Of a stretch of 64,000 bases of DNA, positions 1-63,351 are shown piece after piece. Positions within the stretch are counted from its first letter, which is position 1, and each line of letters starts with the position of its first letter. The stretch is from an uncultured Methanosarcinaceae archaeon (GTDB lineage Archaea > Halobacteriota > Methanosarcinia > Methanosarcinales > Methanosarcinaceae): assembly GCA_963727895.1 (NCBI GenBank), contig CAVSHT010000008.1, positions 64,001 through 128,000 of the forward strand. Reading direction: 5' to 3'. Position numbers and translations under genes: made by a program. The notes beneath the pieces are model-generated. The model was not told the origin of the DNA and made no database searches. It saw nothing but the letters and a program-made list of their open reading frames with translations.

Positions 1-486
1 TTCAATTTTTCCCAGAGTAATTTTCCAGTTTCCGTTCCTCTGCTGCCAAAAGAGCAGTTGATGAACTTTTTCCCAACTCTATCAACAGCAATCCAGATCC
101 AGCAATATTTTTTTTGTTACCGATGTAAGTGTGCATCTCATCCATTTCAACAATAGATATCTCATTTTCACTTTTTAGGTTCTCTAACTCCTGACCAAAT
201 TTCTTGATCCATTTTTGGACAGAGACGTGACTTACCCCTAAAACTCTTCCTATTGAGCGAAAGCCCAATCCTTCAAGATAGAGTTGTAAAGCCTGTCTTT
301 TAACAGAGGCGGAAAAAGCAGTTGATTTTAGCTCTACTGTATAGTTATATCCACAATCATGGCATTTGTAACGTTGACGCCCGCCAACTATACCATTATT
401 TTTGTGACTGGAACTATTACATTTTGGGCAGTTCATGAAGAAATATATGTTATAAGCATATATATCTATTTTTGTGTACCAATGCC
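1..486 (-). mobile_element. IS1-family element copy 1, runs off the window edge. InsA-like ORF 2..436 with an A8 frameshift site.
   Basis: Zn-ribbon CPKC...YKCHDC plus HTH. End repeat GGCATTGGTAC ends at 486. Near-identical to six other copies. Confidence 0.9.
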
Positions 487-19375: not shown

Positions 19376-20115
19376 GGCATTGTTACTTAACTATATTTAA
19401 TTATTTATTTCTTTATTTCATCAATAGAATAACCGAGTACTTTAGCATTTCAAGACTCTTCGTATAACACTTTGTCTTTCTTCTCAACCTTGCCAGAAAG
19501 TGCCTCAATATGCTGTTATATCTTTCAACAGTATACGTTTCTGCTTTTGATTGAGTATGGATCTTTTCTGGAAGAAACTCTGCATATGCCCTCCAGTGAT
19601 CGGTCATCACTTCTCCAATCTCTTTTTTCTTCACTTTTTCCCAGAGTAGTTTTCCAGTTTCCGTTCCTCTGCTACCAAAAGAGCAGTTGATAAACTTTTT
19701 CCCAACTCTATCAACAGCAATCCAGATCCAGAAATATTTTGTTTGTTACTTATGTAAGTGTGCATCTCATCCATTTCAACAATAGATATCTCATTTTCGC
19801 TTTTTAGAGCCTCCAACTCCTGACCAAATTTCTTTATCCATTTTTGGACAGAAACATGACTCACCCCTAAAAATCGTCCTATTGAGCGAAAGCCCAATCC
19901 TTCAAGATAGAGTTGTAAAGCCTGTCTTTTTACAGAGACGGAAAAAGCAGTTGATTTTAGCTCTACTATATAGTTATAGCCACAATCAGAGCATTTGTAC
20001 CGTTGACGCCCGCCAACTATACCATTCTTTTTGTGACTGGAACTATTACATTTTGGACAGTTCATGCAGAAATATACTTTCTAATAATATATAACTATGT
20101 TTAAGTATCAATGCC
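19376..20115 (-). mobile_element. IS1-family element copy 3 (740 bp)
   Basis: GGCATTG...CAATGCC ends. ORFs 19631..20065 and 19413..19634. Slippery run interrupted (AAACAAAA). No TSD. Confidence 0.9.
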
Positions 20116-20960
20116 AAAAATATCTTTAAAAGATACTCCAAAGTATACCGAAAAAATGATACAGGAATATATATCAAATAATCCAAAGATTTTAGGGCTT
20201 GGGGATTTAGAATTAAGAGGCAAAGAAAGATTACAACCTAGTACAGGAAGACTAGATCTTTTGTTCCAAGTTCCAGATTCAACTCAGAGATACGAAGTCG
20301 AAATCCAACTAGGAAAAACTGATGCATCCCATATAATAAGAACAATTGAATATTGGGATATTGAAAGAAAAAGGTACCCACAGTATGATCATTGTGCAGT
20401 AATCGTGACTGAAGACATAAAGAGTAGATTTTCAAATGTAATACAGCTTTTTAATGGAAACCTTCCAATAATTGTAATTCAAATGAATGCTTATGAAACT
20501 GGAGGGAAAATAGGATTAGGCTTTGCTAAAATTATAGACAAGAAGGAGGTAGGTCTTGTTGATGAAGACGAGGAAGTTATAGAAGCTATTGATAAAAGTT
20601 ATTGGGAAGCCAAAAGTTCAAAACAGACAGTTGAGTTAGCAAATAAATTACTCAACTTGATAACAGAAATAGATCCACTTTATAATATAAAATATAACAA
20701 ACATTATATTGGCTTAACAAAAGATGGAAAAACAAATAATTTTGTCAGTTTCAGGCATAGAAAAGATTTTTTATTTTGGCAATTAAGCTTGATCAAACAG
20801 ATGAAATAATGGATGAATTAAGCAAATCCAATTTGGAACTACTAGATTATGATGTAAAAAACATAATTACAGAATCATACTTAATGAAATGGGAATTGAA
20901 ACCAACAAGGAATTACTTAGTAAACTATTCAAAATGTCTTATGACGACTATAATTTTTAA
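20111..20960 (+). pseudogene. PD-(D/E)XK-like (NucS/DUF91-like) nuclease-domain protein. 5' end abuts IS1; frameshifted near 20770-20800 and ~20860.
   Basis: E..IQE, GRLDLL, YEVEIQLG motifs. The ATG lies inside the IS1 terminal repeat. The C-terminus continues in shifted frames. Confidence 0.6.
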
Positions 20961-24936: not shown

Positions 24937-26760
24937 TAGTCACCACTTTAAATAATGCGACATTTTATGTTTAAATGTATGTTTCTCCCAAAATTCATTC
25001 ATTTCTTCCTTTAATGCTTCAATATTTTTAAATGATTTTATTGACGTTAAGTTTTCTCTTGTCACTTTCCAACAGTATTTTGTTGGGTTTCTATCTGGAG
25101 TAGCTGGAGGGAAAAATATTATTTTCAACCAATGCTTATTATTTTGATAAAATTCCTTTGCCTTTGCTGATCTATGCCATGTAGCTCTGTCCAGTAAAAG
25201 AAATATCCTTATCCCTATATCTCTTTGAAACTTGATTAATGATTTTAAGTAAGAGTCTGTATTCTGTGTAATTCCTAAATCATACCAATAAAACTCTCCA
25301 TTTTCAGTGTAGAATCCCCCAATATTGATTTTTGCTTTTGAACCACTTGTAAATTTAATAGGTTTTGAGCCCTTTATTGCCCAACATCTGGATCTATTTG
25401 AATCCACACAAAAATTACTGGAATTGGTAATTAAAAATAGATATATGTGCTTATAACATATATTTCTTCATGAACTGCCCAAAATGTAATAGTTCCAGTC
25501 ACAAAAAGAATGGTATAGTTGGTGGTCGTCAAAGGTACAAATGCCATGATTGTGGATATAACTATACAGTAGAGCTAAAATCAACTGCTTTTTCCACTTA
25601 TGTAAAAAAACAGGCTTTACAACTTTACCTTGAAGGATTGGGCTTTCGTTCAATAGGAAGAGTTTTAGGGGTGAGTCATGTTTCTGTCCAAAGATGGATC
25701 AAGAAATTTGGTCAGGAGTTAGAGGACCTAAAAAGTGAAAATGAAATATCTATTGTTGAAATGGATGAAATGCACACTTACATCGGTAACAAACAAAATA
25801 TTGCTGGATCTGGATTGCTGTTGATAGAGTTGAGAAAAAGTTCATCAGCTGCTCTTTTGGCAGCAGAGGAACGGAAACTGGAAAATTACTCTGGGAAAAA
25901 TTGAAGAAAAAAGAGATTGGAGAAGTGATGACAGATCACTGGAGAGCATATGCAGAGTTTCTTCCTGAAACGATTCATACTCAATCCAAAGCAGAAACGT
26001 ATACTGTTGAAGGATATAACAGCATATTGAGGCACTTTCTGGCAAGGTTGAGAAGAAAGACAAAGTGTTATACGAAGAGTCTTGAAATGCTAAAGTACTC
26101 GGTTATTCTATTGATGAAATACAGAAATAAAGAACTAGATATATTTAGATAACAATACCAAATTACTTTCATCAGGGGTAACGAATAAATGATTAGGGTT
26201 TAGTAATCTGTTTTTTGGACTTCTCTTATGAATTATTTTTTAAGCACCTCATTTCTTCTTTTAGATTGAGGTCGACATGTGATTTTTCTCAACCCTAAAT
26301 TTTTTAAAATTTGTCTCATTCTTGATTTGGAATAAGATACTCCAAATTTTTCCTTGACAAATTGAACTGCATCTTTTGTTTGCCAACCACGAGAATAAAC
26401 ATCATCTGTTGGTATAGGTTCTAAAAATGCCTCTCTTAACTCAGATAATTGTTCTGCAGTTAAAAAAGACTTGATTCCTCGACCAGGTTTACATTTAAGA
26501 CTAAACAAACCGTCGGTTTCAGCTCGTTTTATCCAGCGATGAACAGTTGAACGGTGAACTGAAAAATCGTCGGCAACTTTAGCGGGACTCAAACCATTTT
26601 TGATCAATAATAAGGCTTGAAGTTTAATCTACACGTTTTTGTTACAGGAATTTATGATAGCTGTAGAAATATCAGAAGTTGTAAACATTTCCAAACTCAT
26701 ATATAAAATTATATACTCATTTCAGGTATAATAATGTTGCAGTAAATACAGAGGTGACTA
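24937..26760 (-). mobile_element. IS630-family element (TA TSD), interrupted by IS1 copy 4; transposase is a pseudogene
   Basis: TIR TAGTCACC...GGTGACTA flanked by TA. HTH ORF plus DDE ORF (DES, LDRATWH, PD.NP). In-frame TAG near 26630. Confidence 0.88.
25420..26159 (+). mobile_element. IS1-family element copy 4 (740 bp), nested in IS630, 8-bp TSD AAATTACT
   Basis: TSD at 25412-25419 and 26160-26167. The uninterrupted IS630 sequence is present in the second copy near 39760. Confidence 0.93.
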
Positions 26761-32049: not shown

Positions 32050-32645
32050 GTGGTTTCAGCCTCTGATTTTATGCATCTAATTTACCAGTATGATTATATA
32101 AAATGCTTCTTAATCAGTTTTTGTTGTGAAATTGTACTTAAAAATAATGGTATTGTTATCTAAACATAGTTAACTCTTTATTTCTTTATTTCATCAATAG
32201 AATAACCGAGTACTTTAGCATTTCAAGACTCTTCGTATAACACTTTGTCTTTCTTCTCAACCTTGCCAGAAAGTGCCTCAATATGCTGTTATATCCCTCA
32301 ACAGTATACGTTTCTGCTTTGGATTGAGTATGAATCGTTTCAGGAAGAAACTCTGCATATGCCCTCCAGTGATCTGTCATCACTTCTCCAATGTCTTTTT
32401 TCTTCACTTTTTCCCAGAGTAGTTTTCCAGTTTCCGTTCCTCTGCTGCCAAAAGAGCAGTTGATGAACTTTTTCCCAACTCTATCAACAGCAATCCAGAT
32501 CCAGCAATATTTTGTTTGTTACCGATGTAAGTGTGCATTTCATCCATTTCAACAATAGATATTTCATTTTCACTTTTTAGAGCCTCCAACTCTTGACCAA
32601 ATTTCTTGATCCATTTTTGGACAGAAACGTGACTTACCCCTAAAA

Positions 32646-34173
32646 CGCACATGCTTTTCTTCGAATAACAAGCACAACTAATGAAAGTACTCTCCGTTCT
32701 TTTTTTGGACTATTAAGCCCTCATTACCTTGGGCAGTAAGGTTGTCTCGATTTTGGTTTTTCAAAACCGTCCTAAAACTAATCAGTGAATTGCCATCGAA
32801 GGCTCAAGTGTGACTTTGATCACGGATGCTAAATTGGCCTTTTAGGCAATTCCACTGCCCAAATAAATTTGGTGATCTAATTTGATTGAAGTCATAAACA
32901 AAGCTTGTGGTTTAGACATTCACAAACTCTTTTTCATTGCTACAATTTTCAGTAGATCTGGTGAAAAACAACAGCAACGTTTCAACAGAGATGATGAAGG
33001 AATTTTAGCCCTTAAAAATTGGGTAATATCAGAAAAATGTGATGTTGTTGCATGTGAATCAACCAGCTACTTTTGGGTTCCGATTCATGATTCATTGGTA
33101 AAGCATCTAACTGTGATAGTTGGAAATGCGCGAGATATGAAGGTATTTACCCATAAAAAACAGATAAGATTGACTCAGAAGTCATTGCACAACTTGCACT
33201 TAATAATATGATTCAGCCATCAAGAGTTTTTCCAAAGGATCATATAGATTTTAGATCATATGTTCGACTTCGGTTAACACTTGTACAAAAAAGAACAGAT
33301 TTAAAAAATAAAGCTCACTCAATTCTTGCATCTGAAATTCAATTCTTGCATCTGAAATGCTACACCTGAATAATGTGCTGACAGACGTTTTTGGCAAGAA
33401 TGGCAGAATGATCTTATTAGGAATCTCTTCAGGTAAGAGTGTTGATCAGATTATTGCAAGCCTCTCTCCAAATGTTCGGAAAAAAGCTGCTCAGATAAGA
33501 GAAATTCTTGATCGAGAAATTTCTCAAAGTGCTGCATTCAGACTTCAGATCTGTCTGAAACTCATAAAAAGTCTTGATGATGAACTCGAAGCTTTAGAAA
33601 CAGAAATTTTCAATTATGCTTCTCGAAATCATAAGCGAGAAATGGAGATTTTAATGTCAGTTCCAGGTATAGGGGAACTTGGTGCGGCAATTTTACTTGC
33701 TGAAATAGGCAACTTTAAGGATTTTTCTTCTGGAAATAAGCTTGCTTCTTGGCTTGGTCTAGTTCCTAATGTGTATCAATCTGCAGATAAATACTATAAC
33801 GGCAGAATCACAAAGAGGGGATCAAAAGTAGCAAAGTGGATTCTGACACAGATTGCTTAAGCAGCAGCAAGAAAGAAGAATAGCAGGTTAAAAGAGTTTT
33901 TTAACAGAAAAAAGAAGTCGATTGGACATGCAAAAGCAATTATTGCCTTAGCAAGGAAAATTGCAACGATACTATGGCATCTTATTACAAACGATGAGAT
34001 GGACGAAGATGAAACCGGATATCAAAAGAGAAATCCAAAAGAGAAAGATTATTGAGACTGAGATTTTTTAGGTTGATGAACTGATTAAAATAATTAGTGG
34101 AATATTTGCGATTATGGGGAAAAAGGATCAAGAGAGCACGTGAGGATAATCTCCTCATGTACTTTCATGCTAA
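32646..34173 (+). mobile_element. IS110-family element; transposase (32882-~34070) is a pseudogene
   Basis: DEDD N-domain (CGLDIHK, ACESTS) and Tnp20 C-domain (SVPGIG, AEIG, LASWLGLVP..YQSA, GRITKRG). No TSD; AA core at both junctions. Frameshifts include a 20-bp duplication at 33319-33358, and there is a stop at 33858. Confidence 0.9.
32729..32862 (+). ncRNA. Putative IS110 bridge RNA core (target-binding and donor-binding loops)
   Basis: Closing stem TTGGGCAGT/ACTGCCCAA. Two internal stem-loops whose loop segments match the target and donor junctions. Confidence 0.65.
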
Positions 34174-34416
34174 ATCATCCTATTGAGCGAAAGCCCAATC
34201 CTTCAAGATAGAGTTGTAAAGCCTGTCTTTTTACAGAAGCGGAAAAAGCAGTTGATTTTAGCTCTACTGTATAGTTATATCCACAATCATGGCATTTGTA
34301 GCGTTGACGCCCACCAACTATACCATTCTTTTTGTAATTAGAACTATTGCATCTGGGGCAGTTCATGAAGAAATATATGTTATAAGCATATATATCTATT
34401 TTTTAGTACCAATACC

Positions 34417-34451
34417 AAATAAAGAACTGGATATATTTAAGTAACAATGCC
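34417..34451 (+). mobile_element. Orphan IS1 right-end fragment abutting copy 5
   Basis: AAATAAAGAACTGGATATATTTAAGTAACAATGCC matches the right end of copy 4 (~26125-26159). Confidence 0.8.
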
Positions 34452-53615: not shown

Positions 53616-53898
53616 ACTTTTTCATGACCCGAAACTCGATTGATCCTTCCATATTAGCGATTCAGAGGAGCAATTTTGAGTATTAGGATCAGATTCACTA
53701 CTTAGTTATAATCATTTGAAAACTGAAAAAGTTTTTATTTTCTAAACTCAAAATATGGAAATATTATTTCAAAAATATTATATTTAGAAAATGAAATGAG
53801 TAAATCCACAGAAGCAAAAGTTCCGTATGTTGGATCAAATATCGACAGTTAAAGGTTTAATGCTATTATTTTTCAGCTCAAACGCATAAATATTATTT

Positions 53899-54640
53899 GG
53901 CATTGTTACTTAACTATATTTAATTATTTATTTCTGTATTTCATCAATAGAATAACCGAGTACTTTAGCATTTCAAGACTCTTCGTATAACACTTTGTCT
54001 CTTTCTTCTCAATCTTGCCAGAAAGTGCCTCAATATGCTGTTATATCCTTCAACGGTATACGTTTCTGCTTTTGATTGAGTATGGATCTTTTTTGGAATA
54101 AACTCTGCATATGCTCTCCAGTGATAGGTCATCACTTCTCCAATCTCTTTTTTCTTCACTTTTTCCCAGAGTAGTTTTCCAGTTTCCGTTCCTCTGCTAT
54201 CAAAAGAGCAGTTGATGAACTTTTTCCCAACTCTATCAATAGCAATCCAGATCCAGCAATATTTTTTTTGTTACCGATGTAAGTGTGCATCTCATCCATT
54301 TCAACAATAGATATCTCACTTTCACTTTTTAGGTCCTCTAACTCCTGACCAAATTTCTTTATCCATCTTTGGACAGAAACATGACTAACCCCTAAAACTC
54401 TTCCTATTGAACGAAAGCCCAATCCTTCAAGGTAAAGTTGTAAAGCCTGTTTTTTAACAGAGGCGGAAAAAGCAGTTGATTTTAGCTCTACTGTATAGTT
54501 ATATCCACAATCATGGCATTTGTAGCGTTGACGCCCGCCAACTATACCGTTCTTTTTGTGACTGGAACTATTGCATTTTGGGCAGTTCATGAAGAAATAT
54601 ATGTTATAAGCACATATATCTATTTTTGTTTACCAATGCC
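53899..54640 (-). mobile_element. IS1-family element copy 6 (742 bp; 2-bp insertion frameshifts the InsB C-terminus)
   Basis: GGCATTG...CAATGCC ends. No TSD. Confidence 0.9.
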
Positions 54641-54642
54641 AA

Positions 54643-55020
54643 ATTACAATTGATTTAGTCACTATTATCATCCTTTATATACTGCTACTGGCGCTACTTG
54701 CAGGAGTAATAAATCTCCTCCTGAATGTCAAATCAATTCTATTCGGGACTATTGGAAGCGGTTTAGGTCAGATAGTATCTAGTGTTCTCACAATTTTTGT
54801 TCTCATTGATCTTTTCAAGACTTTTGCTGATTTTCGTGAACATGAAGAAATCAAAATTGCATATGTAACCGATGCTACGATTTTAATAGTTATGCGTGAA
54901 ATCGCAGCAGGGGTATATGCCCAAAGATTTGATTATCAATTTATTTTAGGCTTATCGATGTTGTTGTTAATACTGGGTATAATAAAGGCTCTATCTGTAA
55001 AATATCCATCCAAACAATGA
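54643..55020 (+). pseudogene. PsiE-family membrane protein, 5'-truncated by IS1
   Basis: Hand translation: ITIDLVTIIILYILLLALLAG...VLTIFVLIDLFKTF.DF.EHEEI...YVTDATILIVMREI...KYPSKQ*. No start codon after the IS end. Confidence 0.7.
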
Positions 55021-62129: not shown

Positions 62130-62610
62130 CTTTTCAATCTCCATACTATTTTATTTAATAATAAACATAATAATTGCTGGAATACTGCAAGATTGAATAA
62201 GAATATATTCGGCTTACCACAAATTCTTTGCGTAACCTAGATAATGAAGCTGTCCATGAGCAGATCTCTAATAAAGATCTATCTGTGAGCAGAGACCTTT
62301 TTCAAAGATCGTTTGCCTTGCCCCAGTACTCATTTCCTCTAAAAGAACTATTTATTGCAGCCTCATTGACTTCTTTTTCCAACCCATTTCCCGACTTGGA
62401 TCAGGGAGTATTTCTAATCGTTTTTAACGCTAAAGGTTCCCCCAATAAAAGCAAGGTTGTTTATCTAATTTCAAAACAATTACTGAATTGAGCAAGATGT
62501 CAGTAGGTATCTAGAGATTTTGGGCAATATATGACTTTTTGAAATAGTATTTTTGGCCACAAAAAGAAAGACAGAACTTGACTTTAAGACTGGATAATAA
62601 TAATTTAGTA

Positions 62611-63351
62611 GGAATTGATACTTAAACATAGTTATATACTATTAGAAAGTATATTTCTTCATGAACTGCCCCAAATGCAATAGTTCCAGTCACAAAAAGA
62701 ACGGTATAGTTGGCGGGCGTCAACGCTACAAATGCTCTGATTGTGGCTATAACTATACAGTAGAGCTAAAATCAACTGCTTTTTCCGCCTCTGTTAAAAA
62801 ACAGGCTTTACAACTTTACCTTGAAGGATTGGGCTTTCGTTCAATAGGAAGAGTTTTAGGGGTTAGTCATGTTTCTGTCCAAAGATGGATAAAGAAATTT
62901 GGTCAGGAGTTAGAGGACCTAAAAAGTGAAAGTGAGATATCTATTGTTGAAATGGATGAGATGCACACTTACATCGGTAACAAAAAAAATATTGCTGGAT
63001 CTGGATTGCTGTTGATAGAGTTGGGAAAAAGTTCATCAACTGCTCTTTTGGTAGTAGAGGAACGGAAACTGGAAAACTACTCTGGGAAAAATTGAAGAAA
63101 AAAGAGATTGGAGAAGTGATGACCTATCACTGGAGGGCATATGCAGAGTTTCTTCCAGAAACTATTCATACTCAATCAAAAGCAGAAACATTTACAGTTG
63201 AGGGATATAACAGCATATTGAGGCACTTTCTGGCAAGATTGAGAAGAAAGAGACAAAGTGTTATACGAAGATATTGAAATGCTAAAGTACTCGGTTATTC
63301 TATTGATGAAATATAGAAATAAATAACTAGATATATTTAATTACCAATGCC
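62611..63351 (+). mobile_element. IS1-family element copy 7
   Basis: GGAATTG...CAATGCC ends. Same 2-bp InsB insertion as copy 6. No TSD. Confidence 0.9.

Follow-up and report, generated by a model that had tools for sequence, protein, structure and literature searches.

A predicted bridge RNA in the left end of an ISMac14-like IS110 element from a Methanosarcinaceae archaeon

We focus here on an insertion sequence (IS) of the IS110 family and on the RNA that its non-coding end appears to encode. The element lies in a 64,000-nucleotide stretch of DNA, the window (positions 64,001 to 128,000 of contig CAVSHT010000008.1, here C8:64001-128000), which belongs to the assembly of an uncultured Methanosarcinaceae archaeon (GCA_963727895.1; 3.67 Mb in 19 contigs, 84% complete). 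It is related to ISMac14, and its left end very probably encodes a bridge RNA, also termed seek RNA, of about 135 nt on the transposase strand. Relative loci are designated by L and contigs of the same genome by C, each with a number, and positions of the form 32xxx or 34xxx are window coordinates.

The element and its genomic setting

The element covers 1526 bp (32646..34171, plus strand). It is bordered by AA on both sides (32644-45 and 34172-73), and the flanks of its genomic copies diverge exactly at its ends. On the left, AA precedes CGCAC, which starts at 32646; on the right, CATGCT runs up to 34171 and is followed by AA and ATCATCC. All the strings that a first-pass annotation, made from the sequence alone, had picked out were found where it had placed them. 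The first 236 nt (32646..32881, plus strand) are devoid of any reading frame and contain the RNA gene, and the first transposase codon lies at 32882. Among named relatives, an ISMac14-family transposase comes nearest, sharing 81% identity with the best reading frame found locally.

The host of the insertion is an IS1-family element on the minus strand (32148..34419, boundaries from BLAST), about 744 bp long once the insertion is subtracted and split at 32645/34172. Pfam recognises in it an InsA zinc ribbon (34175-34366) and a DDE_Tnp_IS1 domain (32186-32407). The uninterrupted target site, CCCTAAAAATCGTCC, is present in another IS1 copy at 19865..19879 (plus strand), as had been proposed; this is the sole match in the window, where 0.03 would be expected by chance. 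The IS1 family is abundant in this genome, with roughly 230-250 copies of 744 bp by BLAST, or about 5% of the assembly, and seven of them lie in the window (1-483, 1488-2232, 19376-20118, 25419-26160, 32148-34419, 53898-54644 and 62604-63323).

BLAST of the genome against itself retrieved about two dozen copies of the IS110 element at 93-100% identity (28 matched pieces, giving 24 junction rows and 22 near-full copies). The expectation that other copies would share the flanks of the window copy was borne out: the left junction reads CTAAAA in 20 of 22 cases and CTACAA in the other 2, with the longer CCTAAAA in 18/22, and the right junctions start with AAAT, AAAAT or AAAC. IS1 sequence flanks 10 copies on both sides and other DNA flanks 3 on both sides; of the right flanks that are not IS1, 7 begin with AAA, mostly AAAT. 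All copies with a full IS1-type left flank (13/13) are inserted in a single orientation. Occupancy also depends on the type of IS1 copy. Those whose right half fits the guide described below, CCTAAAA(A)T(C/T)..., are occupied in 13 cases and empty in 62, as against 3 occupied and 125 empty for the non-fitting CTC type, CCTAAAACTC... (odds ratio 8.7, p = 2e-4). As an IS1-borne composite could also have been mobilised by IS1, the counts lack full independence.

A covarying fold with two internal loops

The predicted core of the RNA spans 134 nt (32729..32862, plus strand) and was delimited by single-sequence folds and covariation. It is closed by an outer stem, P1, in which TTGGGCAGT (32729-37) pairs with ACTGCCCAA (32854-62). 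P1 encloses two stem-loops, each made of a proximal stem, an internal loop and a distal hairpin. The first, target-binding stem-loop (32740..32783, plus strand) has a proximal stem at 32740-43/32780-83, which covaries from GGUU/AAYC to AGCC/GGCU and GGCC/GGCC, and a distal hairpin, GGTTTT/AAAACC (32755-60/32763-68), in which 4 pairs are changed on both sides. The second, donor-binding stem-loop (32787..32852, plus strand) comprises the stems GAATTGCC/GGCAATTC (32787-94/32845-52), AAGGC/GCCTT (32799-803/32837-41) and 32809-13/32820-24; these helices, 4 to 6 of the model, pair in 86-100% of cells and covary.

This six-helix model was evaluated on an alignment of 15 relatives with 80% to 37% protein identity, from Methanosarcina, Methanospirillum, Methanoculleus, Methanoperedens and short contigs binned elsewhere. 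Pairing is found in 89.5% of 545 cells, with changes on both sides in 18 of the 37 pairs, and 0/500 shuffles reach this level; when the partners are slid as a control, only 29-48% of cells pair. Folding of the single sequence yields P1 and the second stem-loop, yet it does no better than shuffles (z = -1.0, -1.7).

The pairing cells also bear on the nature of the molecule. They contain 39 G-U against 21 A-C combinations, one U-G pair is invariant in 15/15 relatives, and this excess favours an RNA read from the transposase strand. Moreover, the 3' ends of the guides fall at the core only on a plus-strand RNA. Complementarity by itself cannot separate RNA from DNA, and the left-end copies could in principle act as DNA, either as single-stranded guides of the IS200/IS605 kind or as sites bound by protein, without any RNA. 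We consider this very improbable: the enzyme belongs to the IS110 family, for which RNA guides were shown experimentally according to the main reports (PMC11208160, PMC11187229), the bias towards G-U is as given above, and the guide variants among the local copies are C-to-T changes that preserve the U-G wobble pair.

Several features were observed around this fold. At about 32700-32717, 12-30 nt upstream of P1, a T run leads into a TATA-like block (TTTTTTG..TATTAA in relatives); judged by eye to be conserved, it may be a candidate internal archaeal promoter for the RNA. A scan of the region for sigma-70 promoters and terminators, which is inapplicable to archaea, gave nothing above shuffles. 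In three genomes (L102:1501-1746, L111:1477-1724, L114:1483-1725), the distal target-loop hairpin is swapped for an insert of about 90-100 nt with a long stem of its own, so this hairpin tolerates expansion. A perfect hairpin occupies the very start of the left end, over some 30 bases, in the elements of Methanospirillum and of the second family (CATGAGGC...GCCTCATG; L060 1267-1300, L106, L099); it might match the 5' stem-loop of the IS621 RNA if transcription starts at a circle junction.

Target guides track the insertion site

The internal loop of the first stem-loop carries two segments that match the target. On its 5' side, CTCGATTTT (32746..32754, plus strand) is complementary to the top strand of AA and the right flank (AAAATCGAG). 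On its 3' side, CCTAAAA followed by C (32771..32778, plus strand) is identical to the left flank plus AA over 32771-77, and the C is the first base of the element. The proposal that loop and target sequences change together across homologues could be addressed by reading guides and junctions in each relative and shuffling the guides 20000 times among 14 element families. The left-flank guide, on the 3' side of loop 1, corresponds to the last seven bases before the element, in variants such as CAGAAAA, AGAAAAA, TACGAAA and TGTAAAA, and scores 90.4/98 matches (61.1 +/- 4.0 when shuffled; 0/20000 reach this value). The right-flank guide, on the 5' side, was scored over six bases beyond the A run and matches more loosely, with 48.3/84 (30.0 +/- 3.9 when shuffled; 1/20000 reaches it). 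Good examples of the latter are L035 (10/11), L034 and L036 (8/9 each), L106 (9/11) and L113 (8/9); in L106, the right side reads ACATAGG then AATGTGGGT, and the complement of the guide is AATGTGGGTAG.

A second set of loci agrees with the first. A covariance model built from the alignment led to 25 fetched loci with distinct guide pairs, in which the 3' loop-1 guide was sought 40-100 nt upstream of the RNA. It was found exactly in 10/25 and with at most one mismatch in 19/25, as compared with 4.0% and 33.2%, respectively, for non-cognate guides (582 pairs), and 0/5000 shuffles reach what was observed. These matches stand directly before the C...CATGA motif of the left end.

In a second family of the class, to which L110 and L106 belong, the flanks point to a target of the CTACCTGCGG-AA-ATGTGGGTAG type that is imperfectly palindromic, reminiscent of those targets of bacterial IS110 elements that resemble repetitive extragenic palindromes (REP).

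The AA core

The AA core put forward in the first-pass annotation is confirmed by relatives, the genome itself being ambiguous on this point. In the own genome, A's number four at the left junction, three or four at the right one and five in the commonest fitting empty site, so the core cannot be uniquely placed from these copies alone. Junctions with fewer A's fix it. In L066, with the guides CTACGAAA and AAAGTAATC, they read ...ACGAAA|element and element|AAGTATT; in the L106/L110 type, with the guides (T/G)(G/C)GGAAA and AATGTGGG, the left side has three A's and the right side two. The overlap is therefore exactly AA.

The bases that follow the 3' guides fit the other partner: the C after CCTAAAA is base 1 of the element, and the AT after ATGCTAA (the donor guide described below) is the start of the right flank, replaced by GT in L066. 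These bases recall the handshake guides of IS621, which we offer as a suggestion, as the positions hardly vary.

A donor guide for the right end

The 3' side of the second internal loop carries the donor guide, ATGCTAAAT (32826..32834, plus strand), which is identical to the right end (ATGCT), AA and the first two bases of the right flank. It matches the right end of its own element perfectly in 13/14 families, across six variants (ATGCT, ATGTT, ATGCC, ATGG, ATAG and ATAGG), and sums to 118/126 (96.9 +/- 3.6 when shuffled; 0/20000 reach it). The exception is L041, whose right end is duplicated. This duplication (L041:2760-2830) is partial: CATGTC-AAATG lies about 20 nt from CATGCT-AAATG, and the second copy alone fits the donor guide. 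Among the right ends of the second set, the first 8 bases of the guide are found exactly in 5/19 loci and with at most one mismatch in 11/19; the remaining 8/19 lie beyond the fetched stretch or belong to damaged copies.

With all three segments considered, a last reading of the left end can be weighed, that of a transposase mRNA leader controlling translation, in which the guide-like matches would be chance products of A/T-rich DNA. The structure does stop about 20 nt ahead of the start codon, and the indifferent single-sequence fold would suit such a leader. This explanation is already disfavoured by the three covariations between guides and partners, each reached by at most 1/20000 shuffles, and by the agreement of the second set, and we regard it as the least probable of those discussed here.

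The left end is a different matter. The first-pass annotation had described four guide segments, of which three covary with their DNA partners across relatives. The fourth, GTGTG (32808-12), was rejected as a left-end guide: it is the 5' strand of the covarying distal stem, which goes from UGUGA/UCACG to UGCGA/UCGCG, UGUGG/CCACG and UGCGU/ACGCG, and it does not track the changes of the left end. No partner was found for the five nucleotides on the 5' side of the donor loop, TCAAG (32804..32808, plus strand), which become TGAAC in Methanospirillum; they are not complementary to AA + CGCAC, and show complementarity at the variable position 3 of the left end in 3/11 cases.

Both ends carry inverted repeats. 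A subterminal repeat of the right end, GTACTTTCAT (34159..34168, plus strand), read from the sequence, has an inverted copy, ATGAAAGTAC, inside the left end (32681..32690, plus strand); this 10-bp copy sits 35 bp from the left terminus. Joint changes of the internal repeat and the right end are seen in Methanospirillum (ATGAAAAAC/GTTTTTCAT) and in Methanoperedens, where 15/16 bases match. Relatives also have a 7-bp CATGAAA repeat near both termini, at a distance of 4 bp on the left and 2 bp on the right; in the window copy it is reduced to CATG. We propose that the left end would be recognised by the protein, through these inverted repeats.

The same observations lend themselves to another scheme, in which loop 1 guides the target, the second stem-loop acts as a protein scaffold or as part of a precursor, and both ends are read by the protein via the inverted repeats. 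In the report of Siddiquee et al. (PMC11187229), a short seekRNA with the target matches alone was sufficient, and here the 5' side of loop 2 has merely 5 nt and no partner, and the terminal inverted repeats covary. It is hard to explain without pairing, however, how the 3' side of loop 2 follows six right-end variants in 13/14 families, and we hold a target-only RNA to be unlikely, if somewhat less so than guides made of DNA.

Proposed mechanism and the points that weigh against it

Our favoured reading thus remains that of a two-loop RNA in the non-coding left end of an archaeal IS110 element, matching the target and one end of the element, as the fold and the covariation of the guides support the corresponding claim of the first-pass annotation. 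In this mechanism, loop 1 would select the insertion site and loop 2 would hold the element. The recombinase, with its DEDD RuvC-like domain and catalytic serine, would then unite the target and the circularised element on the RNA, and strand exchange would take place at AA. IS621 likewise has its guide 3' ends at the core, which makes the same exchange chemistry probable here. We infer the RNA molecule and its ends, the circular intermediate, the steps of strand exchange and the mode of left-end recognition.

A number of points stand against this interpretation. The RNA nature of the molecule is deduced from what is known of the family, from the fold and from the polarity of the guides, and a search of Rfam (release 15, E up to 10) gave no family match, the two chance-level hits both lying outside the left end. 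No circle junction was found among the Logan contigs of public runs. No left-end guide was found either when the 5' donor loop and all left-end columns were compared with left-end positions 1-8, neither complementarity nor covariation being detected. The guides are A-rich and bring little information from this element alone, and the A run at the right junction varies between 3 and 4 among the local copies. Kinship among the 14 families makes the shuffles overstate independence; the joint changes of guides and partners are nevertheless real substitutions on both sides, and the right-end guide shows about five independent ones. In the second set, 6/25 loci have 2 mismatches to the left flank. 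The recombinase is defective in 22/22 aligned local copies, with no unblemished one in the incomplete assembly. Finally, IS1 sequence borders 7 or 8 local copies on just one side, and some of the junctions therefore arose by later recombination.

As for the latter copies (for example C11:266262-264735, C3:101625-103145 and C9:235776-234248 as against C11:229057-230585, C4:394533-393025 and C5:291645-290078), they look like products of reciprocal exchange between copies after insertion, or of half-site events. A joint of 32646 to 34180 in run X15 was also considered as a circle junction and rejected, as it corresponds to an IS1 variant without the insertion.

The recombinase gene

The DEDD/serine recombinase gene (32882..34143, plus strand) is recognised by Pfam in pieces (DEDD_Tnp_IS110, Transposase_20). 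It is broken, as first described, and carries a 1-base deletion in an A run, a 20-bp tandem duplication, a 2-base deletion, a TAA at codon 320 and a TAG at codon 391. The intact relatives, such as L034, have 414 amino acids, and an intact relative served to align the 22 near-full local copies. With 63.5 and 91.8 bits on the two Pfam IS110 domains (cut-offs 29 and 21.3), the best local frame falls in the family. The window copy yields domain pieces only, with PF01548 at 25.2 bits, under the cut-off of 29, and its frameshifts and stops leave no intact set of catalytic DEDD residues and serine. The KTDxxD motif is retained in the relatives L031-L035, L058-L060, L064 and L066, and the catalytic serine aligns with S241 of IS621.

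The lesions are largely shared. A tandem duplication at one site (about 33320-33360 in the window) breaks the frame in 18/22 copies, with a length of 20 bp in 17 and of 60 bp in one. The four copies free of it are each damaged otherwise: C9:87743-89251 by a single TAG at codon 65, a second copy by a TAA at codon 235 and a third by three 1-base insertions. The fourth (C4:394533-393025, protein P0001), the sole local frame free of frameshifts and early stops, has the TAG at codon 391 and, with KTY instead of KTD, a Y at the third acidic position. The spread of a defective form to many sites suggests that an intact copy helps, or once helped, in trans.

In-frame TAG codons are thus seen at two places in the recombinase, each followed by an open frame: codon 65 in C9:87743-89251, and codon 391 in the window (34052-54) and in six other copies. 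Methanosarcina is known to read TAG as pyrrolysine.

Relation to described systems

The system has much in common with IS621, as presented in PMC11208160 and PMC11208158. In both cases, the left end houses the RNA gene, which precedes a DEDD/serine recombinase gene and shares its orientation; two stem-loops with internal loops are dedicated to the target and the element, all guides include the core dinucleotide and have their 3' ends at the core, and a G-containing linker follows each distal stem. For the present element, one loop matches the target and the other the right end, with the core in each guide, and three of the four expected guides covary. There are also differences. The core is CT in IS621 and AA here; the long contiguous guides are here on the 3' sides; both loops are here within one outer stem; and the left-end guide was not found. 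The protein has 414 amino acids, and its C-terminal domain alone aligns to IS621 and ISCro4 in PDB (E = 3.7e-9). A further difference, which goes beyond the first-pass annotation, is that the guide order is reversed relative to the element and its transposase gene; in IS621, the left target guide (LTG) is A50-U58 and the right one (RTG) G77-G80. Viewed from the RNA, a 180-degree rotation of the canonical geometry gives the present one, and the difference concerns the element end that each donor guide meets, relative to the genes.

This order is that of the IS1111-type seekRNAs (ISEc11, ISPa11 and ISKpn4), in which PMC11187229 places the top-strand match 5' of the bottom-strand match, as with 32746-54 followed by 32771-77 here. 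That report also attributes to this group a specific target and orientation-specific insertion, which are likenesses too, and the subterminal inverted repeats, for which we took 7-17 bp as the range characteristic of the group, may be another. In that group, in contrast, the non-coding region is downstream and the transposases have 330-350 amino acids, as against an upstream region and 414 amino acids here. In our element, the right end lies about 30 bp past the full-length stop codon, and a tblastn search against IS4321-family genes covered 18% of the protein (E = 9e-5). ISEc21, of the IS110 type, is described in the same report with an upstream non-coding region and a conserved site inside the transposase gene of another IS (IS3 there, IS1 here), but with the bottom-strand match 5' of the top-strand match.

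By its 81% identity with the ISMac14-family transposase, the element belongs to the lineage of ISMac14, ISMba20, ISMba7 and ISMma5 (ISfinder, Methanosarcina), which figure in a residue-conservation table and in an identity matrix. The members are given as 80-90% identical to one another and, in the parts of the matrix that were compared, they share no more than about 29% identity with entries outside the group. The same layout was not seen when the ends of a Caballeronia relative (33% identity) were read. Vaysset et al. counted 662 archaeal IS110 recombinases, and the covariance models of Durrant et al. predicted RNAs for 85.7% of the IS110 entries of ISfinder (PMC11208160). Our literature search found no description of an archaeal bridge RNA, of this layout or of an RNA of the ISMac14 group, with the limit that the supplements of PMC11208160 may hold a prediction for ISMac14.

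Taken together, these comparisons raise the possibility, which we put forward tentatively and with more doubt than confidence, of a third layout of bridge RNA, in which an upstream RNA gene is uncoupled from an IS1111-like guide order, three guides are made of RNA and the left end is read by the protein via a duplicated subterminal repeat. If this is true, the account of the IS110/IS1111 split as an RNA moved between the ends is incomplete, and these archaeal recombinases would form a compact AA-core system whose donor side is wired differently. Bridge and seek RNAs were worked out in bacterial elements, and what we have here is a readable RNA, supported by covariation, in one archaeal lineage. 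In this lineage, the two target guides and the end guide have been reprogrammed naturally dozens of times, and the lineage separates the position of the RNA gene from the guide order, which are coupled in both described groups. One end being without a visible guide, the recognition of their own ends by these recombinases becomes directly testable, and an AA-core system is added to the candidate tools.

RNA-library contigs and distribution

Contigs of the RNA libraries X15, X16 and X18 cover the non-coding region of related copies; such contigs carry no strand, ends or level, and may come from DNA. A search of 151 genomes of the archaeal class with the RNA model gave a match in 57/151, in 13/27 genera, distributed by family as 18/67, 37/74, 1/4, 0/2 and 0/3 genomes. 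The genome studied here has 24 strong matches and one weak, and genome G093 has 18 matches. In L104, two related elements stand head to tail (minus-strand hits at 1-145 and 1501-1655), the right end of one abutting the left end of the next.

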